Source: Daphnia carinata (taxonomy: Eukaryota). From it: a stretch of DNA of 64,000 nucleotides. The notes beneath the pieces are model-generated. The model was given only the letters and a program-made list of their open reading frames with translations, did not search any database and was not told the origin of the DNA. The stretch is taken from assembly GCF_022539665.2 (NCBI RefSeq), contig NC_081331.1:8060001-8124000 (forward strand), in the 5' to 3' direction. The stretch's first letter is position 1, and each line of letters starts with the position of its first letter. A program made the position numbers and the translations under genes. Of this stretch, positions 28,601-64,000 are shown piece after piece.

Positions 28601-28731
28601 GTCGTCTCTTCATTTATTTCTAGCACAATTACAATTACCTTTCGGGATCGTTACACGATCCCTCTGGTAATTAACAATTGTGCTGCGAAATGCCATTTCG
28701 TTAGACCCTAAGGGTGACTTTGTAGATTTGC

Positions 28732-31746: not shown

Positions 31747-33007
31747 TGACTTGGACCATGAACTTGTCTTGGTCTTGAGGTTTTAGCCAATGTTGCGTCC
31801 TGCGATGCTTCTTTAAGCATCGACTCCAGGAACTTTCCCGTAAAAAGGAGCTCTCGAGCCTCCTTTCCGGGTGCAAACGCTTCCGGGTCAGCTGCAAGAA
31901 AGTCAAAACCGGGTTCCACTAAGGCAACCACCGATCGCCTTCTCTGCCGGGTAACGTGGTGATAGGCGCGAGACCACTGCTGTAGTGCGTCCTTTACCAA
32001 ATCCTGGGCTTTTCTTTCTGATTCTCCATCACTGAGGGAAAGAATGCGGGTATAAAGGTCTATAAGTGGCGGGCCAATATCCATGATCTTGAGATGCGTC
32101 GTGACCAGCGACTCCTCCGCCGCATTGACTGCTTTTAACTTCCCTTTATCCTTTGCCCGTCTATACATGTAGCCGTCGAGTTTGGGTGGTCTTAACGAAA
32201 ATTCTTTGTCCACAAAATCAAGCGGAATCCTCTTTGAAATTGCTTTAGATTCGTTAGTTGGTACTCCTTTCGTCAACCAGCTGGAAAGAGCTTCGGTGAC
32301 CTCTTGTGGCACTACCAACGGTACAGGCTCTTTACTACCATTCGACCTTAGACTACGGGGCTCTGGGGTACGCTCCTTTGATGAACCCGGCCTCGGTGAG
32401 CTGGGTACGGCTGGCGACCTGGCCGCTTGCTGCCCTGCCAAACTCTCTGGCCTTCGATTTGCTGGGCGCCATGGCCGCTTAAAGAATCCTTGCAGACGAT
32501 CCTTATCTTCGTGGTCGTCTTCTTCGTGGTAGTCTTCTTCTTGCTCGTCGGTTCTGTTTCTATTGCCACGGTCAAAACTCTCACGACTTGGCTCACGCTC
32601 GCTGTCCTCATCCGTATATTGCCCATCCTCCACACGATTATATTCCGCACAAAAACTGTCACGGCGGGAATTATAATTCGCCGTATCACTCCAAAACCCT
32701 CGACCGGTCTCACGTGTGTAAAAATCCCGCACGTCATACCCATAGGTTGGTCTGACTCTGCCATAATCTTGGTCGTTACGATCGTAGATGGCGCGAGGTA
32801 GGGACGGTCGCGATAAAACCCACTCGGCGTTGGACGTGGGGGGGACCTTTCCCTTTCTTGATAACGTGAATCGTAGTAACTTCGGCGATCACGATAACGA
32901 GAGCGTTCTAAAAATTCTCTTTCCTGCTCCCTATTTGAAAAATTTACGGCACGTGGATCAAACCAATCGTTTCTATGCCTATCTCTGTAATTTCCAGGTG
33001 CCGACAT
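31539..33007 (-). CDS. gag: DIRS gag-like ORF1, probably starting at 33007 with a frameshift near 32800-32845
   Basis: Arg/Asp-rich N-terminus, then PKLDGYM..MDIGPPL..RRRSVV..LFTGKF; first ORF after the 5' ITR. Confidence 0.7.
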
Positions 33008-34678
33008 CCTTACTCTGTAAGAGCTAAAATAAGTCTGAAGAGAGGGGGCGTATCCAGGCATTAGGAAAAGAATAGGTGTTCCTTTGTTTTTTTCTTTAAA
33101 GAGCTAAATAAATGGGTCTACACCCTTAGGGTCTAACGAAATGGCATTTCGCAGCACAATTTATGATAGGTTCAAACAGGGAATAATTTTTCTAAACATT
33201 TCGAATATTCGAAAAAGAAATTAATTAAATTGCAAGTACCTGTTCCACTTTGCGTGACTTATCAACATTTCCTTCATAGCACTTCATGCAGTCCTCCGCA
33301 AGATGAAGATGGGTTCCATATGTGGACAACTCTTTCTGGTATTGCGGCATTTTTTTTAATCATTTGTGATAGATCTTTCATAGAAGACTTGTCGCCTGCT
33401 GGCATTCGCTTTGATTCCGTGAACTTTTTCATGTTCTTCGTAACATTTCTATGAAAAATGTTTTTTTTTAACACTTATTATTGCCGACATAAAAAAAAAT
33501 AGAAATGTTTTACGTCAAGACGACCGCTACATGCTGATGACGCAATTCAACCCACAAATCGTCATTTTCGTCAAGTAATACTTCCCTCTCCGATCCACCG
33601 GCTGTGCTTTCGTATCTGAGTCATAATAGAAATTAAAGTATGTTTTTTTGGTCCAAAAATTCATCGTGCTACGAACTTATACGTCATTTTCAATTGGAAG
33701 TAAATCGTACGCCATAGCTTGCAAAGTCATCTCGTGAAGCAGCGAAGAAACACAATCGAATCCTTGATCAAGGATAATAAGCTGGGAACGCGCTTTTTCA
33801 GGACCTAAAGAGATTCATACGATTAAAATTGAATATCTCGTTTAAGAACATGGTGAGACCCACCTTCTCCCATGGTTGGTTCGTCAGCTTTATAGGCATC
33901 GAGTTTATGTTGAACCAGTTGCGCTAGTTCAGCATTGTGACCATTAAAACTAATTGCGAAATTTAAACTAAACAAATAAACTAAACTTTATACAGCTACA
34001 GCAAAGAGAAGAGGAGAAAGCTAGGTTAATGGAAGAAAAGCAAAGGGAGGCTGCACAAATGGAACGCTAGGTCCAAGAAGAAAAGAGAAGAGATGAACTT
34101 AAACGACAAATGGAATTGGATAAAAAACAGCAATGGAAAAAAGACTTTGATGCTCAAGTTGAACGATTGAGGTATGTAGAATATTTGTGTACTCCATTAT
34201 TTTCGTCTTAGGATGTTTCCCTCACAGGGTAATGGACTTAGAGGCAAATGAAAAACGACGAGAACAGGAGAGATTGATAGCAGAAGCTGCAGGGTTGGAG
34301 GCTATTAAAGAAGAGATAAAAAAGAAAGAAGAAGAAAGAGCAAGAAAAAAACAAAACGGGTATAATATATAAATTTTTTTTTCTAAACAATTGTTTTGGA
34401 TCATATACTGTGTATTTTTAGAGAATTTTTGACCAAACAACATTTGGCAAAACTGAGACAACGTTCGAAAGAAGTGACCGCTGATCTAGAAAGAGAAATT
34501 AATTTTGTGGAAAAGCTAACGAAAGTGATCGTTCCGAAAAAAGGGAAAAAACACTTCAAGACATAATGCGATTTTTAGAACTCCTTGAAAACCATCGTCA
34601 AATTGAGAAAGAACGCTTGCAGCAAAGCGAGTTTTTATTCCAGTAATTTACGCTTCCTTTTTGTTTAGTTGTTAAGTG

Positions 34679-35515
34679 TGTAAAGCATCTTCCTTGTGGG
34701 AAGATGGACTTTACGAATTTAAGACAATAAAGAATAAAAATAATAAAATAATAAATGAATAAAAGAATGATAGAACTCAGAGGCGTTGTACCCACAATGA
34801 CGACTATATTTGTCTTAGTTAAGCATAAAAGTACAAGAGGTTTCGAATAAAAGAACAAGAGAAACATACGAAATAAAAGGGAAACTGAAAGTGTAACGGG
34901 ATAACTGTAGTGTGAGCTTACCGCAATAGCACGGGCAGAATAAGAGAGCAGATGTAAGCTGAAGACGAGTTGTAACACAACTCGTCGGCACGTTGGTAAC
35001 ACAAGTTGTAAGAATTGACTCTCACTTGGGCACGAGACCAAGATCAATTCTCAAACACAATATTGAAACAAAAGGAGGCACGAGCTGAATATGAACTTGA
35101 CCGTAAGAGTCAGATACTCGTCGGTAACTCTCTTTCTTCAGGTCTTGAGTTCATCAAGAAACTTCGCATATTGGGCAATGATAAATTGCTGCGCAATTAT
35201 TAGTCATCAATACATGGAATTGGATATGGCGAGATGATGGTGCAATAATGAGTCATACTTGTTTCCGCCAATCAAACGTGTTGTTATAAGCGGCTTTGTG
35301 CCGATGAAATATGATATAGCATAAAGCAGGTGTTTATATAGGTCAAGTTGCTGCGCATATTGATGGTGCAATATGGAAATGGCGCAGTTATAAGAATTAC
35401 GCAGTTATGGAATTGCGCAACTATATTGTGCAATTAATATGAATTAAATGGATATAATAATAAGCATACATAGACAAGAATATAAACGTATAAAGTATTT
35501 ATTGACTTCGTTACA
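34679..35515 (-). repeat. 3' LTR of element 2
   Basis: TG...CA termini; no differences from 46178-47014 seen by eye. Confidence 0.95.
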
Positions 35516-37237: not shown

Positions 37238-37953
37238 TTCTATATCCGGCCGGTACATACAGACAAAAGAAAATATGTGACTTACAAAAGAAATGTCATC
37301 GTGTGGGCTTCTTAACTAAGTAACACAAAACAAAACAAAAACATACAAGAAGAAGTGAGGAAGTGAAAAATAGCCTACGGCTGTCGCAAGGTCAACGGCT
37401 TTTCCCGTCGGCTTTATTAGTAGGCTACGGAAAAGAGAAAGGAAAAAGGGCACTAGAATAAAGTTTTGTTTTAAGGGGGAAGGACAACTTGTTTTTTATA
37501 TTATTTAGTATCGTTGGAAAGAGAAAAAGATGACCATAATTATCGGAAAGGGAAAGTAAGAAAATACAGGACAGTTGATCAGGGAAGACGAGAAAAGAAA
37601 CGTTTAGAAGTTTGCGACGGGAAAGGATTTTGCCGCGAAGGTCCAAGGTCCAAGAGTAGTATTAGTTCCAGGAAAAGGGAGGCGGCGCTAATACTGTATT
37701 CTTGATGTTGGCTATGGCCAAGCTGTAGTGTACGAACGAAAGGGAAAGTGAACAGTATTGCGTGGCATATTGGAATGAGAGTATAAAAGTTATGGCTACG
37801 ATTTGGACCTATTCGTTGAAAAATAACGAAAGTGACGTGTAGGAGATAGGAAGGGAAATAGGAAACGAAATTTGACATTGCGGTTCAGAAAATCATTTGT
37901 GCGTTATATATGTGTTTTTGACAATATATAAAGGTATTTCTTTACTTTCTTAT

Positions 37954-37989
<36 letters not shown>

Positions 37990-38419
37990 CTTGGTGTTGT
38001 TTTTGTTGGTTAGTATGGTAATGTCTCCACATCTACCGTGTTAGTTTGGCAATAGGAATCTACAAAGGGGAGCTACTTAATTTGTGACTACTAAATTGAT
38101 ATGTTGTGACACTCATTTACGGGTCTTGATGAAGGTATGATCAAGCTAAAAAAAAATTTTCTGAAGCAAAAGATTTTTTGTTATTTATTATTATTTTTTT
38201 CTCTACTCAACAGGCTCTACTTATCAGAATCTATGTGGACTTATACTATGGGCTGTCAAACAAGGGAATGACTACGGGGCGTAAATTGAGAAAGTTAAAG
38301 TGTACGACGTGAAAAACAAGATACATGTTGTAACGGATAATACGTTCATAGAAATTGTTGTTTGTTAGCCACTAAGTGTTTTATTATCATGTTTTGTTTC
38401 TGTTTTTTTTTTTTTCTTT

Positions 38420-38457
<38 letters not shown>

Positions 38458-38683
38458 ACAAACGATTAAGCAACCAATGAGTTTATTTCGATGGATAGCA
38501 GCAAGGAGAGTTAAAGCGAATATTGGTATGTGAAATCAAAATAAAGGTAAATATTAAAGTATGGTAAATGTAAACATTAAAATTGAAGGAGAAATATCAG
38601 GAATAACACATAACGAGGACTGAAAGAGGGTCGAATGAAAAAGCTTCCTCCTTCCTCGATTTCTTCGGTTGTCCTCGTACGAC

Positions 38684-39379: not shown

Positions 39380-42300
39380 CTACATTTCGTCCCTGTAACG
39401 AATCGGTTTTCTCCGATTTCGCTGAGGGCGTCGGGTGACTTCTTGATGCAATAACGCTGCTGTCACATCATCTTTGGGCTCTACTTGTTGAAGGTCGGAA
39501 TCACTATCAGCGTATATAGGAGTATTTTCGGAAAGTGGCATTGGATGCTGAGCATCATTCGTCACATCGCAATTGTCACTCGAGGTTAATCGTCCTTCGA
39601 ACGACAGATGAGACGGGCCGATCACATTGTCTTCTCGCACAAGTTGATGATTTGCCGAATAAGTGTCTGATACCACTTCTGATACGGCTTCGGACTCGGT
39701 GTTTTGTTGCCTTGCGGTTTCGACATCGTGCTCGTGTTCACGCACATTAGTTTGAGTCGCAATAGACTTCCGGAATCGGCTCTCGAATTCCAAAGGGGTC
39801 TCAAGTGGCGGACAATGCTCATGTTTCCACAGCATTGTTTCATACAAGGGTTTTAATCTATTTACATGCGTACGCTGACATATATATGAATTATCAGCAA
39901 TGTCTACAGTATTATTTGAATAAACGTTTACTATTCTATAAGGCCCTTTATATTTCGAAGTAAATTTCTTGCTATCTCCTTCCTTGACTACTCGAATATC
40001 CAATAACACCCGATCGCCTATCACATATCGTTTTTCTTTCGCGCGCTTGTTATATTGTTCCCTTTGGCGCTTTCTAGCTTTTTCGCTTTCCTCTCTAACT
40101 CTTTGAAAACTATAACGCAAACGTTCTGTCAGATTCCCAACATAGTCAGAAGAAGATTTGAATGTTTTGGGAGATGCATTAAGAAATTCGTTAATAGGAA
40201 TGTTTGGGTCCCTACCGTGAAGTAAATAATATGGAGTGTCCAATGTCGAAGAGTGGACCGAGCTACGATACGCAAATAAAACATCATCTAATATTTCTTC
40301 CCAATTGGCATGCTCGCCGTCTTTTAATTCTTTTCTTAACATAGACGTTAAAGTTCGATTGAACCTTTCCGTCTCCCCATTACTAGCAGGGTTATAAGCG
40401 GTGGTTAACCTCTGATCGATCTTCAATTTTTTACAAAAATAGCGAAATAACTTGGACGTGAAATTTGTCCCACGATCAGAAATAATTGCCTTAGGCATAC
40501 CATGTCTAACAATAACAGTTTTATATACACATTCTGCTGTTGTCTGAGCAGTTTGATCTTTTAAAGCAACAGCCTCAACCCAACGGCTAAAATAATCTGT
40601 AATAACCAAAATGTAACTATTACCATTGGGCGAAACTGGTGTAATAGGACCCAGAAAGTCCATTCCAATTACATCAAAAGGAGCCTTCGCAACTTCGTGC
40701 GGATGCAAAAGTGCTCGATAGGGTGAAGCAGTGTTGGCTATGCAAACTTCACAAACCCGGCAATATTCTTTAACATCGCCTCTCATGTTGGGCCAATAAT
40801 AATTATTTTTGACTTTCATATAAGTCTTATAAAATGCCAAATGTCCACCCATCGGTGCGTCGTGTAATTCTTTAAGCACTAGGTGGCGTAAGGATAATGG
40901 CAAAACTAATTGATGATGGGTGTCGTTCCTTTTATTACTCTGAGATGGCAGTTCCCGTCTATAAAGTATTCCTTCAATTACCTCAAAATATTCAATTTCC
41001 TTTACCCACTCGGGTTTGGACAATGTAAAAATTTCATCCGGCTCTCCTTCTTCCAGATAATTCTTGATGGCTATACAGAGGTCGTCCTCCTGTTGTTTTT
41101 CGCAGATCAATTTAATATCCTTCCCAGTTTGAATGCTAGCTATTTTTAATCTAGACAAACAGTCCGCGTTCTGGTGAACACGGCCTGGCCTATATTTTAA
41201 TTCATAATTTGTTGCAGCCAATAAAATGGCCCACCTCCCTAACCTTCCATTATTATCCTTCTGATTTTTAAGCCACTGCAAAGGACGATGGTCACTAATT
41301 ATCTCAAAGGGTTTATCCAAGAGATAGTGACGGAAATGTTTAATGGCATCCACGACTGCCAGAGCTTCTTTTTCGGTTGTACTATACTTCATTTCCGCCT
41401 TAGTTAACTGCCTACTGGAGTACGCTATCGGGTGCTCTTGGCCGTTTTGCATTTGAGATAAGACGGCCCCAATACCATAGTCGCATGCGTCAGTGAAAAG
41501 AATAAATTTTTCATTAAAATTTGGATATGCGAGAACCGGCGGTGTAACCAGGGATGTCCGCAACTTTACAAACGCGACTTGTTCTTCGTCTCCCCAGGTA
41601 AAAGGTCTTTTACTAAGATCTTTGTGAGTTAACCTAGTCAGAGGTTTTGCGATTGAACCAAAGTTGGGAATAAATCTCCTATAATAACCTGCTAAGCCGA
41701 GAAATGACCTCACCTCATCGGCAGAAGTAGGCGTTTTGTAATTTAATATTTTGTCGATTTTTCCAGGATCAGGTTTAATTCCCTCAGTCGAAATGACGTG
41801 GCCCAAATAATTTACAGAACGTTTAACGAATTGACATTTCTTAAGTTTTAATTTTAAATTGGCAGTTTTCAATAAGGTAAAAATTTCCCGAATATCTTTC
41901 AAATGCTTATCAAAAGTATCCGAAAATATAATGACGTCATCCAAATAAACTAACGCTTTATGTCCCAAAACGTCTTTCAGTACATAATTCATTAATCTTT
42001 GAAATGTGGCGGGTGCATTGCACAAGCCAAACGCCATCCTTTTAAACTCGTAAAGATTGTTTTCTACTACAAAAGCCGTTTTTTCAATGTCTGGTTCATT
42101 CACTTGAATTTGCCAGTAGCCGGAGGCCAAATCGAGGGTCGTAAAAAATTTCTTCCCATATAATTTATCTAACGTTTCATCAATCCTTGGCATAGGGAAT
42201 GAATCTTTTTTTGTAATGCTATTTAATTTCCGATAATCAACGCAAAACCTCACGTCTCCGCCTTTCTTCTCAACCAAAACCACAGGTGACGCCCATGGAG

Positions 42301-43357
42301 AATGAGAATATTGTATTACATTTGCGTCCATCATTTCCTGCACTTTATCCTCCAGTATCTTTCTTTGGTGGTTCGTAACTCGATAGGGTCGTTGCCGGAT
42401 AGGGCCTCTTCCTTGGGTATCGATCGTATGCTTAATGAGATTAGTGCTCCCTAATTCCGAGTCTTTTGTTGCGAACAAGTCATGAAAGTCATTTAATAAA
42501 CTTGAGAGCGGAGCTTGAAATTCAGCGTCGACTTCCGAAATTAAAACTAGCTCCCGTTTTTGTGTAGGCTTTTCCTCTGGTTGACATAAGGCAATCTTAC
42601 CAATTACGTTATGAATTACTTCGATTTGGCCTAAGGTTGTATTCCTAGGAAGTATGACTTGACTTAACGAATGGTTTTCGACCATAATTTGATATTTCCC
42701 ATCTTCCGATACAGTTCCAACAAATTCTTCAATAAAAATACCGGCCGGCAAATCCTCTGCTGGGGTAAAAATAAATGTGCTATTAGGGGGGACATACGGA
42801 AATGAACCTGTCATTTGCGCTGCGATTACGAGCGCCGTCTGACGAACTAGCGTCGTCTTTTTGACCGTCGTAATTGCCATGTCTGGTGCCCTAGAGATGG
42901 CTGATCCCTGCTCATCCCTGGCTAAGTAAATACGTTTGGCTTCTCCGTCAAGCCGAAACCCGTGTTTCTGGATTGCATCCCATCCAAGGATACAGTCTTC
43001 AGAAACACCATTTGTAACAATGAACTCTTGCCGTAAAACGGACTCTCCGTAACGTACGGGCAATGTAACTTTACCCAGCGTATGCAACTTGTTATCTCCC
43101 ACATCGTATAAATCGAAATCAAGCTGACTGCAGGTTACTTGATTTCTCGAGGGAAGCTTTTGAAATATCCTCTCGTGAATTATGCTTCTAGACGCGCCTG
43201 TGTCAAATAATGCCTGTAAAGGGATCTGAAAAATTTGTAATGGAATTCTGGGGGTCGATTCGTTTATTATTGTTGTTAATTTCGCAACTTGTCGGGATTT
43301 CAACTGAGGTACCCTATCAACTGACCCGAAGTTACAGTTGATACTTATTGGTTTCCC
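39380..43357 (-). CDS. pol: pol of element 2 (PR-RT-RH-IN), reached by -1 frameshift
   Basis: Open frame of more than 1300 aa with LFDTGA, YLDD, RNase H, HHCC, DDE and GPY motifs; no ATG before the protease. Confidence 0.97.
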   Translation of the reverse strand, partial: GKPISINCNFGSVDRVPQLKSRQVAKLTTIINESTPRIPLQIFQIPLQALFDTGASRSIIHERIFQKLPSRNQVTCSQLDFDLYDVGDNKLHTLGKVTLPVRYGESVLRQEFIVTNGVSEDCILGWDAIQKHGFRLDGEAKRIYLARDEQGSAISRAPDMAITTVKKTTLVRQTALVIAAQMTGSFPYVPPNSTFIFTPAEDLPAGIFIEEFVGTVSEDGKYQIMVENHSLSQVILPRNTTLGQIEVIHNVIGKIALCQPEEKPTQKRELVLISEVDAEFQAPLSSLLNDFHDLFATKDSELGSTNLIKHTIDTQGRGPIRQRPYRVTNHQRKILEDKVQEMMDANVIQYSHSPWASPVVLVEKKGGDVRFCVDYRKLNSITKKDSFPMPRIDETLDKLYGKKFFTTLDLASGYWQIQVNEPDIEKTAFVVENNLYEFKRMAFGLCNAPATFQRLMNYVLKDVLGHKALVYLDDVIIFSDTFDKHLKDIREIFTLLKTANLKLKLKKCQFVKRSVNYLGHVISTEGIKPDPGKIDKILNYKTPTSADEVRSFLGLAGYYRRFIPNFGSIAKPLTRLTHKDLSKRPFTWGDEEQVAFVKLRTSLVTPPVLAYPNFNEKFILFTDACDYGIGAVLSQMQNGQEHPIAYSSRQLTKAEMKYSTTEKEALAVVDAIKHFRHYLLDKPFEIISDHRPLQWLKNQKDNNGRLGRWAILLAATNYELKYRPGRVHQNADCLSRLKIASIQTGKDIKLICEKQQEDDLCIAIKNYLEEGEPDEIFTLSKPEWVKEIEYFEVIEGILYRRELPSQSNKRNDTHHQLVLPLSLRHLVLKELHDAPMGGHLAFYKTYMKVKNNYYWPNMRGDVKEYCRVCEVCIANTASPYRALLHPHEVAKAPFDVIGMDFLGPITPVSPNGNSYILVITDYFSRWVEAVALKDQTAQTTAECVYKTVIVRHGMPKAIISDRGTNFTSKLFRYFCKKLKIDQRLTTAYNPASNGETERFNRTLTSMLRKELKDGEHANWEEILDDVLFAYRSSVHSSTLDTPYYLLHGRDPNIPINEFLNASPKTFKSSSDYVGNLTERLRYSFQRVREESEKARKRQREQYNKRAKEKRYVIGDRVLLDIRVVKEGDSKKFTSKYKGPYRIVNVYSNNTVDIADNSYICQRTHVNRLKPLYETMLWKHEHCPPLETPLEFESRFRKSIATQTNVREHEHDVETARQQNTESEAVSEVVSDTYSANHQLVREDNVIGPSHLSFEGRLTSSDNCDVTNDAQHPMPLSENTPIYADSDSDLQQVEPKDDVTAALLHQEVTRRPQRNRRKPIRYRDEM

Positions 43358-46143
43358 TGATGCTGAGGGGGACCCGGAATATTAGGCCTACTGGCCCTAT
43401 ACTTGGGACAATTGTTTGATTTATGGCCGATCTCACGGCAAGAATAGCAAATTGGGGGCTGTGCTTGTTCCAACATATACCGTTGAAATTTACGGCACTC
43501 CGATTGTGTGTGACCCCGAAACCCACAATAGTTGCAAGTTATTACATTCTCAATAGGCCCATTGTTCGGATTATGACCAGATTTTGGCGAAGATGGCATA
43601 TAATTTGTAGGCCTATTTTGGTTCTTATCCCCTTGATACGGGTGGGTGTTACTCTTAGGGAAAGGTGGAGGGTTTGTCTTCCAGTTCCTTTCCCGATTAC
43701 CGTTGCCTGTTTGAAATGATACCCTTTTTTTATATGGGGCACCCGCCGAAGAAGAAACATTATCCTTCTTATTAATTTGGAGTTGTTTGACCGCCTGACT
43801 GAGCTCGCGCAGCGCGTCTTTAATTTCATCCTTCTCCGATTTCGGAGTGTCTACGATCTTGTTCCCTTGACGTATATTCGCGACGGCCTGATTGACTATT
43901 GCTTTCTGATCGATTAACATCTGCTTAATCTCATGCAATTCTGTATTTTCTGCACCTTTCGACTCGTCGATCGCCCTAACAAACTCATGTTTTTCACGGT
44001 CAGATTCGAGTGCTTCCAAGCGAACAGCATAAACGCGTGTCGTTGCAACCAGTGCGTTAAAGTCGCCAAATTCTTTGTACTTAACTTTCGCCTGTAACTT
44101 GGAATCCAAGCCTTCGATAAATTTCTGCATGAGAATAATTGAAAAGGAACGCTCGATATGGCCTACAGGATACGCTTTTTTAAAGATTTCCTGAAGACGA
44201 TGAGCATAATCAATTATTTTTTCTCCCGGTTTCCGTTTAGCCTTATTAAATTTCTTAATATACAAGTCAACGTTTTCGTCCCCGTGAAAGTGATCAAGTA
44301 AAGCTTCTTTAATAGACGTATAGTCATGAGGATGATCTTTGACAATATTTTGCACTACGGAAAAAGCCTTATCAGTCATTTTTGCTCGCAACATCTGAAT
44401 AACCTTCTCCTCTGACCATCCTGACCCCTCAATTACGCTTTCAAAGGATTCGATCCAGGAATCAAAACGAGAAATTGGACTCCCTGAAAAAGAAGGAAGC
44501 AGTTGTAAGCGCGCGAAGGTATGTTGGGTAGTCTGAAGATCGTTCAAGTCGTTGACCGTGGCTGTCCGTGATGGGGATGAAGAACTAGCCATGTTTGGAT
44601 TAAATGAAGGGAAATTTATTGTTCTTCGTTGTGGATTCGGAGGGAGTTCTGGAATGCCACTCGAAATTGCCTGATGCCCTCTGGTATCTCTTCCGGTCGT
44701 CTGGAGGGTTGGATGTGAGGAACGATTCGATTGATTGATCGTCTGCAACGTTGGCGTCTGCTGTGTGTCCGCCGTTCTTGCGAGGTTGTTTCCGACAGCG
44801 GCGATGTGTGTTGGGCCGGTGTGGCTTGTAGTTGGGTAATGTTCGTTTGTATGCACAACAGCGCTTGTTTCAATCGTATTTCCGTTTGCGTGATTAGTGG
44901 TTTGATGTTGTTGGCCTCCTGTGCGTTGACTGGGTTGTTGGCTTCCGGAAAATTGTTCAGTTTGTCCAAGAGAAGTTGAATTTCTGGTTGCAGCACCTCC
45001 AAATTGTTGATTAAGTTTAGTTTTTCCAGGTACGACGCTAGGTTGTTCACTTCCTTCAAGAATGCTCGTTGTGATGCCAGTAAGATTTCTTCCAGATGGA
45101 TTGATATGTCGCTCACTACGGTGATTATCTCCACGTATCTGCCGTCCTCGTCGGTGGTTTCGATATCTTTTCTCGGAACGAACCCGAAAATTCTTCCCGC
45201 TCTCGTTGGTGTGATCTTTTGCAGATCGATGAGATTGTAGATTTGACCGTGTAGACAAGTCAAAACCTGTCTCGCGTGCCGGGTGAAAATCCCCTTGAGC
45301 TCCGTCACAACCTCCCCTGTCTGCTTCTTCGTCTTCTTCGGTATCGGTCCACTGACTTTCACTTCCAGAATGGATGTCAGGTACGTCAGGAGAATCCTCG
45401 GTTGTTTCCAATTCGTCTGCGTCGGCTGTTCCACGTGGTAATTCCTCTGGACGTCGAGCATCAACTGGACAAGGTGATCCCAGATTTTCGGGTCGCTTGA
45501 CTGAAAATCCTTCTCCCTCTCCTTGAGGCTTTGGAGGGTTAGTAATAGGAACGGCAGCTGGCTTTTCGGTGACTGAAAGATGCTGTTTCCGTTCTTTTTG
45601 ACTTCTTGCAAAAGATGCTTGAGACTCACGTTGAGCTGTTCTTCCATTGGCTGCTCTCTTTTCCGAAAAGAAATTCGAAACGGCAATCGAGAAAGATTTG
45701 GTGGGAGAAGTTTGCTGGGAAACGGACCTTCGTTTTGGCGAAAGATGTCCTACAATTCTGTCTAAAAGGGAGGGTGACTTCGTAAAAGTCGAGGTTTTCT
45801 CTGTGCGCTGGACCTGAGGTTTGCGAGCGTTCGGTATGTCTAGACCAGGTACCGACTCGTATGCGGAATTTGATCTTAACTTCCTCTTCTGAGAGCTATC
45901 AGGAATCGCCCTTGGTTTTAAAACAGGGGAAGCGGACTTTTTAATAGCGTTTGTTTTCCTATTGGAAGTCTTACACCCCGTAAACTTATCAGCAACGGCA
46001 GACTTAGCAGTGGGTAATGCTTCAAAATTGATAGCTCTCGCTACGGATTCGTCAATAGGTGTAGTGGCCTCAACAGAAATGTTAGTAGCGGCAACAGGCG
46101 TTCGAGAAAGTTTAGGCCTACTGTGGAAAATATTATCAGTCAT
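43345..46143 (-). CDS. gag: gag of element 2 (932 aa)
   Basis: ATG just after the PBS; ~515-aa low-complexity extension, capsid-like region (LPSFSGS..FDSW..Q/RKPGEKIIDY), two CCHC knuckles. Confidence 0.92.
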   Translation of the reverse strand: MTDNIFHSRPKLSRTPVAATNISVEATTPIDESVARAINFEALPTAKSAVADKFTGCKTSNRKTNAIKKSASPVLKPRAIPDSSQKRKLRSNSAYESVPGLDIPNARKPQVQRTEKTSTFTKSPSLLDRIVGHLSPKRRSVSQQTSPTKSFSIAVSNFFSEKRAANGRTAQRESQASFARSQKERKQHLSVTEKPAAVPITNPPKPQGEGEGFSVKRPENLGSPCPVDARRPEELPRGTADADELETTEDSPDVPDIHSGSESQWTDTEEDEEADRGGCDGAQGDFHPARETGFDLSTRSNLQSHRSAKDHTNESGKNFRVRSEKRYRNHRRGRQIRGDNHRSERHINPSGRNLTGITTSILEGSEQPSVVPGKTKLNQQFGGAATRNSTSLGQTEQFSGSQQPSQRTGGQQHQTTNHANGNTIETSAVVHTNEHYPTTSHTGPTHIAAVGNNLARTADTQQTPTLQTINQSNRSSHPTLQTTGRDTRGHQAISSGIPELPPNPQRRTINFPSFNPNMASSSSPSRTATVNDLNDLQTTQHTFARLQLLPSFSGSPISRFDSWIESFESVIEGSGWSEEKVIQMLRAKMTDKAFSVVQNIVKDHPHDYTSIKEALLDHFHGDENVDLYIKKFNKAKRKPGEKIIDYAHRLQEIFKKAYPVGHIERSFSIILMQKFIEGLDSKLQAKVKYKEFGDFNALVATTRVYAVRLEALESDREKHEFVRAIDESKGAENTELHEIKQMLIDQKAIVNQAVANIRQGNKIVDTPKSEKDEIKDALRELSQAVKQLQINKKDNVSSSAGAPYKKRVSFQTGNGNRERNWKTNPPPFPKSNTHPYQGDKNQNRPTNYMPSSPKSGHNPNNGPIENVITCNYCGFRGHTQSECRKFQRYMLEQAQPPICYSCREIGHKSNNCPKYRASRPNIPGPPQHQGNQ
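44616..45647 (-). CDS. Overprinted ORF nested in gag of element 2
   Basis: MEEQLNVSLKHLLQEV... entirely within gag in another frame; homolog of 8557-9657. Confidence 0.75.
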   Translation of the reverse strand: MEEQLNVSLKHLLQEVKKNGNSIFQSPKSQLPFLLLTLQSLKEREKDFQSSDPKIWDHLVQLMLDVQRNYHVEQPTQTNWKQPRILLTYLTSILEVKVSGPIPKKTKKQTGEVVTELKGIFTRHARQVLTCLHGQIYNLIDLQKITPTRAGRIFGFVPRKDIETTDEDGRYVEIITVVSDISIHLEEILLASQRAFLKEVNNLASYLEKLNLINNLEVLQPEIQLLLDKLNNFPEANNPVNAQEANNIKPLITQTEIRLKQALLCIQTNITQLQATPAQHTSPLSETTSQERRTHSRRQRCRRSINRIVPHIQPSRRPEEIPEGIRQFRVAFQNSLRIHNEEQ

Positions 46144-46177
46144 TGTGGGTGAGTCCGAGAAATCGCTGCCACCATTA

Positions 46178-47014
46178 TGTAAAGCATCTTCCTTGTGGGA
46201 AGATGGACTTTACGAATTTAAGACAATAAAGAATAAAAATAATAAAATAATAAATGAATAAAAGAATGATAGAACTCAGAGGCGTTGTACCCACAATGAC
46301 GACTATATTTGTCTTAGTTAAGCATAAAAGTACAAGAGGTTTCGAATAAAAGAACAAGAGAAACATACGAAATAAAAGGGAAACTGAAAGTGTAACGGGA
46401 TAACTGTAGTGTGAGCTTACCGCAATAGCACGGGCAGAATAAGAGAGCAGATGTAAGCTGAAGACGAGTTGTAACACAACTCGTCGGCACGTTGGTAACA
46501 CAAGTTGTAAGAATTGACTCTCACTTGGGCACGAGACCAAGATCAATTCTCAAACACAATATTGAAACAAAAGGAGGCACGAGCTGAATATGAACTTGAC
46601 CGTAAGAGTCAGATACTCGTCGGTAACTCTCTTTCTTCAGGTCTTGAGTTCATCAAGAAACTTCGCATATTGGGCAATGATAAATTGCTGCGCAATTATT
46701 AGTCATCAATACATGGAATTGGATATGGCGAGATGATGGTGCAATAATGAGTCATACTTGTTTCCGCCAATCAAACGTGTTGTTATAAGCGGCTTTGTGC
46801 CGATGAAATATGATATAGCATAAAGCAGGTGTTTATATAGGTCAAGTTGCTGCGCATATTGATGGTGCAATATGGAAATGGCGCAGTTATAAGAATTACG
46901 CAGTTATGGAATTGCGCAACTATATTGTGCAATTAATATGAATTAAATGGATATAATAATAAGCATACATAGACAAGAATATAAACGTATAAAGTATTTA
47001 TTGACTTCGTTACA
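46178..47014 (-). repeat. 5' LTR of element 2
   Basis: Followed on the minus strand by TAA-TGGTGGCAGCG (PBS). Confidence 0.95.
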
Positions 47015-48676
47015 AGTGAATAAATTTATTTTAACGTATCTCTTTCGATAGGGAAAAGGCAAAAAAACTGTGGGAAAAACGAGAATCAGAGTGGGGAAGC
47101 GGAAAGATTAGCTCGCAAGAAGTTAATGGAAGAAGTGATAACGATCCAGAAAAAAACAGGCAAGGCACCTATCTTTGTATGAACAATTTCAACCGCCCGT
47201 TCTACATAGTTCAAATTTCTTTAGATTGACGAAAGACTGCTTGTAGCATGGCAAGAAAGAGAGCGACTTTTACTTGATCGGGAAGAACTTATTCGCTCGC
47301 TCGAGAGCTACCATAATCAAATGAAGATGAGGGAGATGGAAACCAAAAATACACAAATTCAAACGAAAGTGCAGCTGTTGGCCCAAATTGATCAAAAACA
47401 GCGTAGTGAAGAAGAATTATTTAGGCTAGAAGAGCAAAAACGCAAACACCAAGAAACCAATGGAAGTAGCCCACAACCAAAAACATTGGAATATTGCAAT
47501 GGATAAACTTGAACTTTAATATTACAAATACTTCATTCTTTTCTAAATTCGAAGCATTTTTCATGTTTTTCTCTTCTATCGATAATACTCTTGGTGTAGT
47601 TTTTAAAATGTACTAGTCCGCAAAAATGGTATCTTAAAAAATTTACTGTATCTCTTATCGGAACTCATCGTGCTCCATGGATAGACAAAGTACCAACGGA
47701 AGCATTAGGAGTACGCTCCGTTTCTCGATGCTTTTTAAAATGATTTTCCAGTAAGTGCTACATCCTCCAAGGAAGATTTTTTTTTTTCATCAACTAGAAG
47801 AAATTCCGGCCCAGCATGTACCTGTCCCTGAATTCCCAAATCGGCCGCCAGTGAAGACAAGAAGCGGACGAATTTCCCGTCTCCCCATTATCCTCGAAGT
47901 TTTTGATCTGAATTAATAGTTTTGATGGTTGATATTGATTTTGCGTCATCTGTTTTCGGAATTCACTATTCGATTGTTTTGTTTTTTTTTTTATTTATTT
48001 ATTTTTTTTTGTTGTTGTTTTTTTTTTTTTTTTTTTGTTTTGTTTTGTTTTCCGCTAATTTAAATAGCGCTTTGCTCCAACCACCCATAGTTTCCCCCAT
48101 CCGTGAGCTATTTTGTTTAGTTGTGTTGATCTTGATTTTGAACTCACACCCAGATGTAGGAATCGAATGCATGAGAAGGGAATGGTAAGGTTTATGTGTT
48201 GAACGGGTTGGGTATAGCTTAGGTATAAGTTTAGTTTAGTTTATCAGATTTTGTTTTTTTCGTTTGAGCGAGTAAGATTGTGGCAGGAACCTTTATTTTG
48301 TGTGGAATTTGTTATGATTGTTCAGTGCCTTTTAGCACGGGTGAAATTATTGTGGTGTTATGTATTGTTTATTATGTATGTGAATCGTGAAAAGTCACAG
48401 GCCAGGAAAGGCCGAATGTTGCGGGGTACCACAGATACCCCGCTGACATTACGACAAGTCCCTTTTCCCCCTGCTAGATGTCACGTCTGGTGACACCCCT
48501 TTTCTCTTACCCTCACCATCTCTCGAGCGGACACTGTGGTTAAGACTGTGAAACTGGGAACATCGCTTTTGTTGCTGAGATATTTTTTGTAATACGGGTG
48601 CCGTGCTAGGCTCCATCGTGTGAAAAAGAACTATAGTCTGAATAAAAGAGGCTTGTGGGCCTTTATCCTGCAACAA

Positions 48677-51600
48677 TATGCAGATGTTAGAAGCCATCTT
48701 GGCCATTACGGCGTAGTTTTGTGGGAAGAAGACAACAATTTCTATCGCATTCAGATAACCAAGGAGATGGTGAATGACGCAGAAATTCACTTCGTCGATT
48801 ACGGAAATCTTCTTGAGGTGCCCCGATGCCAAATCCTTGCTCCCCTTGAAGGTTTGACGCGCTTCCGCCATCCTCCTTTCGGCATACATTGCAGGCTAGA
48901 GGGTGATGTGGCCTTGTCCGTCTCGGAATGGAAAGAGGCCATCTTGGATAAGTCGGTTGTGGTTACTATGGGAAAGTGTGAAAATGGAATTTATTCCGTC
49001 ACATTGACAAATGATCCCTGCAATTATGAAATTGCCAAAATGGTTTCAAAAAAGGTTATCCCGACATGGAAGGTGTCAAACAATAGTGAGTTCTTCGTTT
49101 TTTTTATTGATTCACCGACTGTTGTTTATTTCATTATTTCCTTTTCAGCACCAGCGGTCAGTGTACGCAGCGATTCGTCGCCAGCTGCTCCTCAAGCAGT
49201 GCCCCCAGCGGAGCCGAGCGAAGATCGACGAAGGAGAAACAAAGATACTAAGGCCTCGGGAATCGGAGATAGGCTGATATCGTAGGGGAAAGCTACGGGC
49301 TCTTCCACGGCAATCAAATCGAGAACGTTGGTGTCCCCGATGAAAAGCGATTCCACAAATTGCACGCCGTTATTATCCGTTCCCAATGATGCCCAGAGCA
49401 TTTGCTCCAACTGGGAACAAATGTCGTTGAATTTTTCTGCAGTCGCTTCCGAACATTCCACAGACAAATCTCCCTGGATAGCCATGACCGGAATGTTTAA
49501 GAATTTCTCAGGTAAATTGAGTATATCTTCCTGTGAGACGCGGAGAGTATCACCGTAATCGATGAACCGAACTTCTGTAAAGTCTTTGAAAATGCTGATG
49601 ATCTCGGCGCGGTACCATGCGCCGTACATGTAGTGATGCACTCCATAAATCTGATGGATAAAACGTTGCCCTATATACTACATGTAATTCTTCGATGGAT
49701 GGTCGATGCAAGTACGAGTTACACAGCTGTTCAATCAAGTCGACGCCATCGGTGGAGAAGAGGCGAACGTTCAGGGTTCCATCGATCACGTTCGCGCAGT
49801 GTACGGTGAAGGCTTCCGATTCGACAATGACAGTTTCAAAAGCCAGTGAAACTTCTTCTGTGAAAGCTTCTGCTCCAACTACACTGCATTTATAAGCAGC
49901 GGCAGGTTGGTGAGACACATCCACTAGTAGCCGTCGCAAATCGCTGATGTTTACTGCGCAACTGTTGCCGTAATCCACGTAATGAACAGTGGCAGTGTCC
50001 CCGTCAACAGATTCGACAGTAGCGCGATACCAGCAACCATCGTCGGCGAAGAACGCCAGGCAAGGCTTACCGACGGAGGCCGTATAATCTTTGCAGTTGG
50101 TGAACTCGGGATCAAGAACCAAAACGTCAATACGTTCCGAGATGCCAAAGATCGATTTCGGTTCTAATTGAACCCAGAACTCAGCTTCTCTGCTTATAAA
50201 TGCAGTGTAGTTGGAGCAGAAGCTTTCACAGAAGAAGTTTCACTGGCTTTTGAAACTGTCATTGTCGAATCGGAAGCCTTCACCGTACACTGCGCGAACG
50301 TGATCGATGGAACCCTGAACGTTCGCCTCTTCTCCACCGATGGCGTCGACTTGATTGAACAGCTATGTAACTCGTACTTGCATCGACCATCCATCGAAGA
50401 ATTACATGTGGTATATAGGGCAACGTTACGTTACGTAACGAAAATGCTGATGATCTCGGCGCGGTACCATGCGCCGTACATGTAGTGATGCACTCCATAA
50501 ATCTGATGGATAAAACGTTGCCCTTTGATTCGGAATGATTCTTTATCCGCCTCGTAAGTATCGGCTATTTCGTCCAACATTCCAATGAGCACGTCATTGT
50601 TATGTTGCAGTTGAAGCCAGAACTCATTTGGAGATACGGAATAAGTGACGTACACCTTCACACAATAAACGCGCGGCTGACCCTCCGTAACCGACTCCGA
50701 CGTCGATGGCTCTGGCATCACAGGTGTAAGTTTCTACGTTCGTCTCATTGAAACCAGTTTGCTGCTGGCCGACATGGTTCGCATGCTGAACACGTAGTAC
50801 TCCGGTAAATTGCGATGTAGCGTTACCTTATGTCACTTGTTTAATCTGTGGTTCTTTTTATTTGTTCAAAGACGAAACTCAAGGATTCATCCTGAATGCC
50901 AAAGTAGGTTCTGCTTGTGCAGTGCAGTATGAAACAGACAACCAATGGTACCGCGGAAAGATAACTGAAATGAAGGAATCTTCTTTAACACCTCAGTTCA
51001 CCGTGCTATTTGTTGATTGCGGCAATACCCAGCTGGGTTCCCCGAAACAAGTAACGTATATTGACGAGTCCTTTGTTCAACTACCACCGTTAGCTTACCA
51101 TTGCAAGCTGGAAGGAATAGAAGGCTCCCGGACTTGGACGATTGAAGGAGAGAACAAATTCAAAGAATACAGTATGGACAAAACTTTTACCGCCACTTTC
51201 GCTGCCTGCGATTCTGAAGGCAAATAGCCTACCCCATACAACTGGTCGATGAAAATGGAGGTGTTAAAATCATCATCAATGACTTGTTTATGACAAAATC
51301 AACATGCCTTTCACCACCCAGTGAAGGGTATACCTATCTTCCGGTACCAGAAACGCCAATCGATGTGGACATTGCATGGTATCATAACCCAGGTAGGATC
51401 TTCACTAGCCCAGTGGATCTCTCAGCGTATCAGGTAAAGCATATCTTTTGTTCAAAGAACTTCAGGCTATTTTGATTCATGATTAACATGTTTTCCTTCA
51501 AATGCTAGAGTGAATTGGATGAACTTGAAAAGTTTTATTCACCCTTATCTCATGATGAACTGGTAGAGGACCAACCCAGAGTTGGATTGCCTTGCGTGGC

Positions 51601-54600
51601 TCGCTTTGCCGGAGACGAACGTTACTACCGATCACGAATTCTAGCTATTCAAGATAGCGTAGCCAAAGTGCTTTTTGTTGACTACCGAAATGACCAGGAC
51701 ACTCCATTGTCGCAGTTGAAACGGATTGTTCCGCGCTTCATGAAATTTCCACAGCTGGTAACTTTGAATATTACGTTTTTACCACGTAATGTAACAACCA
51801 ATCAAGTCTCGAATTCGTGTTTTAGACATGGCATTCGAAATTGAAGGGAGTGAAGAAAATGGTTACCGGCCCACTCAATCCCAATCCACAAAAACACATA
51901 GCCGCCTGCTTTTTAACTGAACAGACGATCTCCGCATCGTTCCATCCCGTTGGTCCAGGTAAACGTTACTTTACTAATCATAAAGTGATCATATCAAACG
52001 AATATCATCAATTGTTAGATAACAACGGAATATTCGAAGTGGATCCGGTAGTTCCCGGGATTGGCGATGTGGCGCAATACTTGATTCAACAAAAAATCTT
52101 GGACAGCATCCCAATGGAAACTGAAACAAAATTTGCGGCCCAGAATTTAAATTTCGATCCAGGGGAAATCATTTCCACTCATGCCGTAGCTCCTTACGTC
52201 AAATCAGCCACTGAGTTCTGGGTTTAATTAGAACCGAAATCGATCTTTGGCATCTCGGAACGTATTGACGTTCTGGTTCTTGATCCCGAGTTCACCAACT
52301 GCAAAGATTATACGGCCTCCGTCGGTAAGCCTTGCCTGGCGTTCTTCGCCGACGATGGTTGCTGGTATCGCGCTACTGTCGTATCTGTTGACGGGGACAC
52401 TGCCACTGTTCATTACGTGGATTACGGCAACAGTTGCGCAGTAAACATCAGCGATTTGCGACGGCTACCAGTGGATGTGTCTCACCAACCTGCCGCTGCT
52501 TATAAATGCAGTGTAGTTGGAGCAGAAGCTTTCACAGAAGAAGTTTCACTGGCTTTTGAAACTGTCATTGTCGAATCGGAAGCCTTCACCGTACACTGCG
52601 CGAACGTGATCGATGGAACCCTGAACGTTCGCCTCTTCTCCACCGATGGCGTCGACTTGATTGAACAGCTGTGTAACTCGTACTTGCATCGACCATCCAT
52701 CGAAGAATTACATGTAGTATATAGGGCAACGTTTTATCCATCAGATTTATGGAGTGCATCACTACATGTACGGCGCATGGTACCGCGCCGAGATCATCAG
52801 CATTTTCAAAGACTTTACAGAAGTTCGGTTCATCGATTACGGTGATACTCTCCGCGTCTCACAGGAAGATATACTCAATTTACCTGAGAAATTCTTAAAC
52901 ATTCCGGTCATGGCTATCCAGGGAAATTTGTCTGTGGAATGTTCGGAAGCGACTGCAGAAAAATTCAACGACATTTGTTCCCAGTTGGAGCAAATGCTCT
53001 GGGCATCATTGGGAACGGATAATAACGGTTGTTGTCTTCTTCCCACAAAACTACGCCGTAATGGCCAAGATGGCTTCTAACATCTGCATACAGAAGTGGG
53101 GAATTGGGATTAGAAGCATACACTGCCGTGAGCTCCGAAACCATATCATTCAGACTGTCGACGGGGATGTTCTCAAACTGTCCAAAAAAACAGCCGGGGT
53201 TCTCTGGATGGATCACGCAAAGGCTTTCTTCCAAATCTAATTGAACTGGAGAAATCTGTTGATGGATGTAAACAAATTCGAAAGTTACACAACTGTTTGA
53301 AAGCATGCAAATTCTGATTATACTTACATCCGTAACGCACGTAGGGACCACATTGCTCTTCGGTGGTGTTGATGGGCTTGAGGCGACGGTTTGAAATTTT
53401 GTTGCGAGAAGGTTCGACTGAATCGAAACAAGAACTTCCTGTAAACTATGGCCGTTGGGGCCGTAGAGATTTACTTTCTGTTTCCCCTCATCATCTTCCA
53501 CAACTTCGACTTGCAGATAGTCGGCTGAGTTCACTAATGCAGTGAATATTTCTTTCAGGCCAGTGAGTTTCAAAACTTCTTCCACACCAAATAAAGACAC
53601 TCGATAAGCAAACAAGCGTGGCATCAGCAATTCATCCGGGATGTGGCAAATCAAAGAAAGGCTAACCGGCTCTTGCGTTCCAATATCGACGAAATAAACA
53701 GTACAACTGCATAGGTTACCACACTCGTTGACGCCTGCGATCAATCCGCGATGGAAAAGCTTATCGGTAGGAGAAACTGCAATACATAGGGTACCCAGCT
53801 TCGGTTTTCCATGCATCGGACGGCTAACTACAGTGTTGAGTTTTTTGCGTAAGCTCATAAGATCTTTGACTTCACTTTTCAGTTGGACATAGAATTTTAG
53901 AGGTCCGTTGGGAATGTGTGTTACGATGACATCGTGCCTTCCGCAATGAGGTATATCGTTTGTTACGAACGCTCTGGGAGGGATTGGCGATTGTTTCGAG
54001 GAGTAGCTTGTCGTCACCGTAAAAGCAGGGTGTTGGTCACGATAAGTAGATGGGATGGCGAGCGCAGGTGGTAGTGTGTTGTTGGCGGCCGAACTGTTGC
54101 CTCCTATTTGGCCAATGTTGGCAGCAGCCGTCATGAAGGCAGGTTGTCTTTCGAGCACATCACACATGTTTAATGCTTCATGGTATGTCTGTGCGGCTAC
54201 ACCCAATCCTTGTTGAATCATCAAGGATGCCAAAAGTTGATTGTTAGAGTCAAAGAGCCGCACACCTTGGTGTTCACCATACATCCCCATTGGTGCAGCT
54301 TTCCATGTTCTGTTTTCCACATTAATTTTTAAGAACATCATGGCAGGCTCACTCCACTGAGAATGATCTCCAGGTCCACGTGGGGCTACCATATCAACAA
54401 GGATGAATTTACTTGCCAAAGGAGGCCACTCTATAATGTGTTTAGCCTCATGCCCAGGAATATCTAATGTTCGAACAAAGGCTAAAGGAACAGAGTGAGT
54501 ATCTCCAGAATCAATGCAAAAACTTCAATTGTGCCTGAATGACTGAGTTTGAGTTCGCGCACTCTTGCCCTGTGCCACTGGTGATTCATCAGCAAACAAC

Positions 54601-55430: not shown

Positions 55431-57146
55431 ATGGTTCGTAATTATAAGCGAAAACGGTCACATTCTCCGCCAAAAGAAGAGATAATGCATCGCGCTGTAA
55501 CTTCTGTGTTAGCGGGAGGACATTCGATACGGCATGCCAGTTCATTTTTCAATGTTAAGAATTCCACTTTGGGCAGGTATTTGAAGACATTTCGCGAAAG
55601 TGGTCCTCCGCTTTCAACACAACGTGGTATGCGACTGGAACATGCTCGTCAAATTATTCCGATTGGGTTCGAGATGGAATTGGCCAATTATTTGAAGACT
55701 TGCTGTTTGATGAGCCACGGCCTAACTCCAAGAGAATCCTGGTGCTTAGCCTTTAAATTTGACATCGCTAACGGTTTAACCGTGCCAACAAATTGGATAG
55801 AGAAAGAAAAGGCATCCGAAGATTGGTTTGCGTATTTTTTAAAACGCAACCCGTCTTTGTCTATCCGCGCACCCGAGGCGACAAGTCAGGTACGTGCCAG
55901 TGCATTTAACGCACTCGTTGTAGACAAGTTTTTCGATAATTTAATTGAAGTCATGACCAAATATCGCATCCGACCCGGCCGGATCTGGAACACGGATGAG
56001 ACGGGCATTCCAACTGTCTTGTCACCACCGAATGTTGTCGCTACAAAGGAATTAAAACAAGTCCAATTAACGGTTTCGGCTGAGCGTGGAGTAACCAATA
56101 CAATAGTTGGCTTCATCTGTGATGCTGGAACTCATTGTCCACCCGTCTACGTATTCCCCCGTAAAAACTTCCTTTCGTCAATGTCTTCTCATGGACCACC
56201 TGGTTGTCTTGGTATTGCCCATCCTAGTGGTTGGATCAACGCCGACACTTTTTTGATGGCACTTCAGCACTTCAAGAAGTTTGTTGATTGTTCCGTCGAC
56301 AATCCTATTCTCCTTCTACTTGACAACCACAGCAGCCACATGGACTACAAAGTTATATGTTTCGCAAAGGAAAGCGGAATTCATATGTTGACGTTTCCGC
56401 CACACTGCTCTCATCGGCTGCAGCCGTTGGACATCGCCGTCTTCGGTCCATTTAAATCTGCTTTAAGAAACAGGTTTCAAGATTGGCTGAATCTTAATTC
56501 CGGCAAAAGAATCAGCATTCACGATGTTGCGGAGTTGACTCGGGATCCTTATTTGTTGTCATTTACTCCAGAGAACATCATATCGGGTTTTAAGAACAGC
56601 GGCATTTCCCCTTTCAATAGAGGCATTTTCCCTGCTTCGCTCTATACGCCGTCGTTTGCCACTGATCGCCCGATTGGTAAGATTAAATCTTAAGTTATTT
56701 TGATTTATATTATTCTGAAAATCAATTTATTTATTATAGAGTCGCTGTCGACCGATCCGTCGGAACCGTTGTTTCCTCCAGCGGCGCCTGAGACAGATTT
56801 ATCGGTTCCGCATTCTCCTGAAGAAGCGCTACCAAACGATCGGATCGTCTTTCAAGTTCTGTCAACGCCCGCTCGGACCGGATCTAATGGTGTTTCTAGT
56901 CCGATTGTGCTCCCGGTAAATGTGATACCGTTTCCTAGGGTTAGCTCAATCTCTAGTGTGAGTGGAAGGCAGAGGACACAGGGCCGGACGAGGATACTTA
57001 CGACCACACCGGACAAAAATGCGAAGATCGAAGAGGCTACCAACAGAAAAACACGCAAGCCTCCCGCTCGTCAATTGGGTAAAAAACTTAGGCAGCCAAT
57101 AGTCAATGATGAAAACAACTTGCGTAAAGAAGAAGAGGAACATTGA
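55431..57146 (+). CDS. pogo/Tigger-like (DDE_1) transposase, intron ~56677-56739
   Basis: N-terminal HTH (SIRHASSFFNVKNSTL), CENPB-like W...FLKRNP.LS.R, and WNTDETG, LLLDNHSSH, HRLQPLD catalytic motifs. Confidence 0.9.
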
Positions 57147-61170: not shown

Positions 61171-61489
61171 ACGACGGGCCTAAGTACCGCTGCAGAACTT
61201 CCTACCATCCTCCTCAGTGTTCTCCATAACCGTCCTAAATTCCTTTTAGAACCTTCTTTTTGGTCACCTGGTAGTTGCCTGACAGGCTCTTCAGTCCCTC
61301 TTACATCACCTTCAGCTAGTACTAAGAACCTCCCATGATGAAAAAAATTGCGGATATGTATTCGATATACCTAGCTGCTTTATATAAGTTTCATAGAATT
61401 TGAATGCAATTAAAACATAAAAGGAATATTAAACGACAACAGATTTATTTGAAATTCTATATTCAATTTCAAAAACTTTATCTTTTATT

Positions 61490-63245: not shown

Positions 63246-64000
63246 TACTGCTGTACCATGCGATCCACACCGTGACGTTAGCTTTTATTTCACTAATTGT
63301 AGTGCTCGACCTCCATCCTATTGAAACAGTTTTATTGTTTGTGTTTTTAATCATTTCTTTTGGTTGCCTTTGTTAGTTCATTAACGTTAGCGAATAATTT
63401 TTTGGAACCCACACATTGTCTTCGTCATTCGTGTGAAAAACAGCCGCCTTAATAATTTATTGAATAAACAATGGTAAACCCCAAAATTTATATTATCTAA
63501 CAATTTTACTTGATTTTATATATTTCTTTGAAACAGCCAAATGTTTTTGTGTTACTTGAAACGCACGAGTCTTACTTTCATGGAGGGATCTTCTAAAGCA
63601 CTCCTGAGCATATCACCAACAATTTCTTGAATTGAAAATATTGGCATGTTCCTCCATAATTTTCCAGCTTCGTGCTCTCATTCCCATCTACAATGCTTTC
63701 AAAAGATTCTAATCATGAGTCGAAACGTACAAGAGGGCTTCCCGAAAAAGAAGGAAGTAATTGTAAACGGGAGGTCTGCTGGTTATTTTGGGCTGGTCAT
63801 TTAAATCGTTAACAGTGGCTGCTCTTGAGGGAGAAAAAAATTCAACCATGTTTGGATTCAATGTGGGAAATTTCGAAGTTCCTCCCTTCGGATTCTGAGG
63901 GTGCTCTGCAATGTTATGCGTAATTGCTCGAGATTCTCTTGCTTTTCTTCCGGTTGATTGGATCGCTGAACTCGTGGGGAGTGTTAAGTGCGTGAGGAAG

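Follow-up and report, generated by a model that had tools for sequence, protein, structure and literature searches.

Inside the gag gene of an endogenous retrovirus of Daphnia carinata there is a second open reading frame, in the +1 frame relative to gag, which is very probably a real, conserved and apparently undescribed overlapping gene. The window in which it lies (the whole stretch of DNA analysed, 64,000 nucleotides, to which all positions refer) holds two elements of the same family that are informative. In element 2 the frame begins with ATG, runs for 343 codons and is enclosed entirely by the 932-codon gag ORF, as the original prediction had it. In element 1, a decayed copy, the homologous frame is open for 366 codons, also as predicted, and gag has a single stop (8838) across the same stretch. 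Our model as a whole is quite probable: a +1 gene selected for its amino acid sequence would be translated from the genomic RNA, likely through leaky scanning, into a predicted helical accessory protein whose likely partners are host factors or RNA, and gag over it would serve as a spacer. Table 1 lists the features.

Table 1. Positions of the features discussed, in window coordinates
Feature	Position	Strand	Remarks
Nested accessory ORF, element 2, 343 aa	44616..45647	-	+1 frame relative to gag
Long gag ORF, element 2, 932 aa	43345..46143	-	cap, spacer over nested gene, capsid (PNMA-type match), CCHC knuckle
Gag N-terminal cap, residues 1-165	45649..46143	-	motifs RTP and LRSNxxY, amphipathic-looking segment
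Conserved Met518 codon	44590..44592	-	just before capsid; a short Gag likely starts here (putative translation)
Gag-pol overlap heptamer G GGA AAC	43351..43357	-	likely -1 frameshift site, by sequence
Pol, element 2	39380..43381	-	protease, RT, RNase H, integrase
Second extra ORF, element 2, 174 aa	38684..39208	-	between pol and env
Env-like glycoprotein ORF, element 2, 569 aa	35549..37258	-	intact, after pol
5' LTR, element 2	46178..47014	-	837 bp, TG...CA
3' LTR, element 2	34679..35515	-	0 mismatches to 5' LTR
Primer-binding site (PBS), element 2	46163..46174	-	presumably tRNA-Leu type
Nested ORF homologue, element 1, 366 aa	8557..9657	+	open
Second extra ORF, element 1, 229 aa	14394..15083	+	homologous to the element 2 ORF
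Nested ORF C-terminal remnant, third fragmentary element	63831..63995	-	contains a stop

Element 2 is intact and recently inserted, an errantivirus of the Ty3/Gypsy group with an env gene. Its two LTRs are identical, a target duplication of 4 bp (AGTG) flanks it, and its primer-binding site, which we take to be of tRNA-Leu type, lies 31 nt upstream of the gag ATG. Pol has the Ty3/Gypsy order of domains and Gag its capsid and CCHC knuckle; the heptamer in the gag-pol overlap is presumably where a -1 frameshift occurs. The env frame has a pN/pS of 0.16 between elements 1 and 2. A search of the PDB with Env, for which the HSV/gB type would imply a class III fold, gave no match, and the element 1 copy matched Rhabdo_glycop_FD in Pfam at E=0.01, which is below the cut-off. 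Env and the second extra ORF are separated by some 1.4 kb (37260-38680) that are non-coding, contain long runs of A and of T, and are possibly regulatory. All named relatives of its Gag come from Daphnia (Daphnia magna, D. sinensis, D. pulex and D. galeata).

By its sequence, element 2 appears to fit among the errantiviruses of branchiopods whose Env is of HSV/gB type, such as Dpul_errantivirus_3/4 and Cdub_errantivirus_6 (Chary and Hayashi 2026, PMC13524379). The gag-pol-env order and the Daphnia hosts are shared, and a PBS identical to that of element 2, or 1 nt different, is listed there for Daphnia and Ceriodaphnia errantiviruses; the Env motifs, and with them the likeness to the "Branchiopoda_C2" envelopes, were compared by eye only. 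The method of that paper annotates three ORFs. In the portion of its text examined, neither the nested gene nor the extra ORF between pol and env is described, and the words "overlap", "extra ORF" and "Daphnia" do not occur in the main text. Nor does the portion examined of PMC2996953 contain an env or an overlapping ORF.

How improbable is it that both frames stay open by chance? We held one protein fixed, resampled its codons synonymously (5000 resamples) and counted stops in the other frame, the strictest null being permutation of the protein's own codons. At the DNA level three lineages could be covered: elements 1 and 2, and L001, a distant copy split in two by a single frame break, which was the only one of two loci found in metagenome contigs to cover the overlap. 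With the nested protein of element 2 fixed, 23.6 stops are expected in gag and none is observed (0/5000 resamples as low; strictest null mean 9.1, P=0.0002). With the gag peptide fixed, 7.6 are expected in the +1 frame and again none is observed (mean 3.9 and P=0.003 under the strictest null). For the two pieces of L001 the expectations are 13.8 and 15.5 stops in gag and 5.0 and 5.2 in the +1 frame, with none observed, and for the gag frame of element 1 the expectation is 17.8 stops against one observed. Stops are therefore depleted in element 2 and L001 for both frames, and in element 1 for gag, with P=0.0002-0.014 or lower under the strictest null, and the third frame carries 19 stops in element 2 and 17-27 per stretch overall.

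Selection on the two frames is unequal. Over nested codons 1-260, comparison of elements 1 and 2 by NG86 gives pS 0.70, pN 0.40 and pN/pS 0.57 in the nested frame, where pS is as saturated as in pol, env and capsid (0.65-0.72), and pN/pS 0.99 in gag, which is close to the closed third frame (1.00). The same is seen when sites are classed by what a change would do: elements 1 and 2 differ at 55 of the 91 sites where a change is silent only in the nested frame, at 48 of 126 where it is silent only in gag, and at 82 of 219 where it is silent in neither; relative to this last class the first stands out (P=0.0003) and the second does not (P=0.91). Over codons 1-260, the amino acid sequence is constrained in the nested frame and unconstrained in gag. 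Further on, in codons 260-343, pN/pS is 0.98 in the nested frame, which shows no constraint there, and 0.76 (CI 0.58-0.99) in gag, a slight constraint. At the protein level, the nested products of elements 1 and 2 align better than the gag-frame peptides, as originally claimed (36.6% versus 28.1% identity), and in a comparison with L001 similarity can be recognized for the nested protein (E 5e-15) but not for the gag peptide. Hence the prediction that selection maintains both frames holds insofar as both are kept open; at the amino acid level it holds for the nested frame only. Gag over the nested gene is likely kept open as a spacer between its conserved N-terminal cap and the capsid. The cap motifs are common to nine divergent rows, and their conservation explains the need for an open spacer.

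It might be argued that the nested frame is a mere by-product of gag composition, the more so as the spacer is poor in hydrophobic residues (0.14), which lowers the number of +1 stops. Yet zero stops remain improbable with the gag peptide fixed, simulations under neutral evolution or constraint on gag alone yield 7-12 stops, the constraint and the site classes point to the nested frame, and its start is conserved. We reject this explanation, the chance of which is practically negligible.

The nested gene is not confined to the window. A profile search built on eight rows retrieved 48 proteins at E<=0.001 (10 at 1e-30) among 1.84 billion representatives, an earlier one having found six relatives; a word search with the single sequence found none, and a search of viral contigs returned none either. 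The long relatives among the 48 are 22-45% identical. Ten relatives were looked up: those with a species name are all from Daphnia and the others are metagenome calls. In an alignment of 12 long rows (19-59% pairwise identity, apart from one near-copy pair at 97%) the residues P32, L36, R44, F48, R126, G134, L197 and E222 are invariant.

The overlap can also be recognized where only proteins are at hand. We compared 19 nested proteins with 12 gag-frame proteins for codon compatibility, a set in which element 1 has no Gag of its own. Nested proteins are compatible with the +1 frame of long open Gags in six other subfamilies: P0177 with P0017 (295/306 positions), P0108 with P0006 (159/165), P0114 with P0107 (170/185), P0127 with P0004 (115/119), P0144 with P0001 (115/120) and P0151 with P0019 (107/117). 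P0110 has no partner among the 12 and P0111 only one of 33 residues. The nested Met1 falls on the Gag dipeptide [N/D]G in all five pairs tested. A hidden +1 signal was scored with the element 2 protein in 22 Gags, many of them near-copies, one being dropped for want of a capsid anchor; it reaches z>=12 in 19 of the 21 scored and is absent from two. In six targets the ratio is the one expected from simulations with the nested frame constrained. It should be kept in mind that many database Gags are gene models from assemblies, some of which could skip stops. Two marks of a true overlapping gene are seen here: both frames are open beyond chance in independent lineages, and the second has amino acid constraint and a conserved start. 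A programmed fusion of the nested protein to capsid was considered and rejected. P0027, P0163 and P0177 are fused at different points, and in P0027, the one covered at the DNA level (L001), the fusion comes from one frame break. All three therefore have the appearance of damaged copies or of gene models.

The stretch from the gag start to the nested start lacks ATG in all frames, both in element 2 (492 nt) and in L001 (333 nt examined). Taken alone this absence is modest once the gag peptide is fixed (P=0.01-0.07). From the gag start to the capsid methionine, over some 1.5 kb, two ATGs are present where 14 are expected, in both element 2 and L001. Internal methionines number 9/3559 in 11 nested rows compared with 38/2150 in pol, env and capsid; isoleucine is unchanged. 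Element 1 has several ATGs between the two starts, but it is a decayed copy. A methionine corresponding to Met518 stands 26-28 residues ahead of the capsid motif in 21/22 database Gags. An upstream ORF starting from an ATG in the PBS was discarded as a conserved feature, being out of frame in element 2 and in frame in element 1.

The near-absence of AUG over 1.5 kb in two lineages points to leaky scanning, and we consider it fairly likely that the nested gene is expressed in this way. Some ribosomes would start at the gag AUG and make long Gag (cap, spacer, capsid and nucleocapsid), others would scan on to the nested AUG and make the nested protein, and still others would go further, to Met518, and make short Gag. 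Instead, a genuine nested gene might depend on a subgenomic RNA, either spliced or started internally. Errantiviruses produce env by splicing, and just 5' of the nested ATG a pyrimidine run followed by AG is present in elements 1 and 2 and in L001. However, the same run encodes conserved Phe residues of the gag cap, and splicing leaves unexplained the loss of AUG across the whole 1.5 kb, the interior of the nested ORF included. We consider a subgenomic RNA distinctly unlikely and retain leaky scanning.

The nested gene evolves rapidly and appears to be exchangeable. Between elements 1 and 2 its product is 37% identical, against 83% for capsid, 88% for pol and 80% for env. P0001 and P0002 have caps 98% and capsids 100% identical and a block core only 40% identical, from which we infer that divergent alleles were exchanged. 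In P0021 and P0023 (31 and 8 cluster members, one named D. galeata) the cap is joined in frame straight to capsid, without the nested block. Since the tree places them within block-bearing lineages, beside P0019 (support 89/88), their lack of the block would be explained most simply by in-frame loss of the whole. Late-domain-like motifs (PPxY or PTAP) precede capsid, within the gag spacer, in 7/16 Gags (P0001, P0002, P0004, P0005, P0030, P0017 and P0019); they are absent from elements 1 and 2 and we do not regard them as a family trait.

What might the nested protein do? It is likely an accessory protein of no known family. In element 2 a helical domain is predicted at about residues 1-275, followed by an Arg-rich patch (289-303) and a C-terminal helix (323-340). 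AlphaFold models from eight-row alignments are all-helical at low confidence (pLDDT 45.8 and 43.6), in keeping with the helical character first noticed. Sequence and profile searches of Pfam and PDB with the nested protein gave no usable match, ESM Atlas at 0.9 gave none, and Foldseek with the low-confidence models gave nothing at E<=0.001. With VIA-align, residues 111-271 reach Z 11-12 against generic four-helix bundles, the STAT coiled-coil domain among them, which is below the bar for helical bundles. No membrane segment is present (maximal hydropathy 1.06-1.57). The Arg-rich patch near the C-terminus, reported beforehand, is there in both elements; 10/12 rows have 5-9 Arg per 15 residues, and it is weak in P0112 (4 in 15). 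It sits in the unconstrained part of the nested frame.

Two suggestions had been made, that the protein is matrix-like or Rev-like. As a structural component of the virion it would link capsid to the membrane or Env, and it is helical and basic, comes from gag RNA and belongs to an element with env. Retroviral matrix, however, forms the N-terminal part of Gag itself and often bears Gly2, whereas the nested protein has a frame of its own, no Gly2 (MEEQ in element 2, MDGQ in element 1), no transmembrane segment and no homology. It also diverges far faster than capsid or Env, and divergent alleles occur on identical capsids. A matrix-like role is in our opinion unlikely. As a Rev-like factor it might export unspliced genomic RNA, which would suit the Arg-rich patch and the Leu-rich helices; but Rev is several times smaller, there is no profile match, and the patch is unconstrained. 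We consider this role equally improbable. A protein that diverges fast, is exchanged between elements and can be dispensed with is more likely to be an accessory factor facing the host than a builder of the lattice. We tentatively favour, at slightly less than an even chance, a fast-evolving and exchangeable accessory factor whose helical domain may meet a partner in host defence or trafficking and whose basic tail may meet RNA or the nuclear import machinery.

The nested gene may not be the only addition. The extra ORFs between pol and env in elements 1 and 2 have an acidic, variable N-terminus and share a conserved C-terminal block of 64 aa (52% identity, E=2e-19) without a match in Pfam; this is likely another accessory gene. 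One could go further and picture Daphnia errantiviruses as complex invertebrate retroviruses, with one RNA that yields, through a scanning cascade of three AUGs, both forms of Gag and a helical counter-defence protein of de novo origin, with a second accessory gene before env, and nested alleles swapped in an arms race with host silencing. This picture is possible and, for the present, rather doubtful.

Several other features of the window deserve mention. Besides its one gag stop in the overlap, element 1 is interrupted further upstream in the gag cap (near 8260 and near 8500) and also in pol (near 11411 and near 14320). Of a third family member (57800-64000, minus strand) there remain rearranged, stop-rich pieces of gag, protease and RNase H. 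At 28049-33133 (minus strand) there is a DIRS-like element, identified from translations, whose ORFs overlap in different frames and resemble RT, RNase H and a recombinase, and whose inverted ends measure 107 nt; its gag-like region has overlapping ORFs at 31539-32888 and 32348-33103. Translation of 48593-54524 suggests Tudor-like domain fragments, together with an inverted duplication of 818 nt at 99% identity (49367-50184 and 52211-53028). Related copies of Tyr/Thr-rich repeat ORFs with a YYTT motif occur on both strands (5900-6520, 20500-20920, 22070-22320 and 24050-24800), and a 420-aa ORF at 55431-56693 (plus strand) reads like a putative DDE transposase of pogo/Tigger type.

Comparable arrangements exist elsewhere. 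The spacer of the hepatitis B polymerase is overlapped by preS and so hosts another gene, as the gag spacer does here, with unrelated sequences. In MLV, long and short Gag come from successive start codons, which resembles our proposal; glyco-Gag is in frame, has no nested gene and is unrelated in sequence. A similar design is that of the paramyxovirus P/C gene, in which a helical accessory protein overlaps the disordered N-terminal region of a major protein and leaky scanning is among the routes of C expression (PMC3934983, part of text). Here too a predicted helical protein lies over a disordered-looking spacer and leaky scanning is proposed. Unlike the P/C gene of negative-strand RNA viruses, ours belongs to a retroelement, its host frame lacks amino acid constraint over the core, and no sequence similarity to C was found; there was no PDB or Pfam profile match, and the fold comparison used low-confidence models. 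Which frame is older is hard to decide in P/C, where C is believed to have originated on top of an older, disordered frame (same source). In our case the nested frame has the look of a long-standing gene and the gag spacer that of a frame free to drift, an appearance at odds with the analogy to C. To speak of a protein overprinted on gag, as was first done, therefore presupposes an order of origin that may be the reverse. Within Ty3/Gypsy, MDG1-group gypsy elements have accessory ORFs near gag as well, sORF1 and sORF2 (bioRxiv 10.1101/2025.03.14.642691, part of text). These encode about 70-110 aa upstream of gag, sORF2 being transmembrane, whereas the nested protein has about 290-420 aa, lies inside gag and has no membrane segment; it is not the short protein with one transmembrane helix that defines MDG1 sORF2/FAST.

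In the literature covered, which leaves aside subscription journals and Repbase, we found no report of a gene nested in a Ty3/Gypsy gag, and the arrangement appears, as had been supposed, to be unusual for this group. Dual coding over a kilobase is known in compact RNA viruses, and none was found reported inside a Ty3/Gypsy gag. The nested gene adds a protein family without known homologue, mostly overlooked by gene callers in favour of the longer gag, and it shows in a clean natural example how selection can differ between two frames that overlap. By this example, endogenous retroviruses of invertebrates would seem to be equipped with accessory genes in the manner of lentiviruses and paramyxoviruses. 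Since Daphnia is a tractable host, the question whether retroelements encode suppressors of host defence would become testable.
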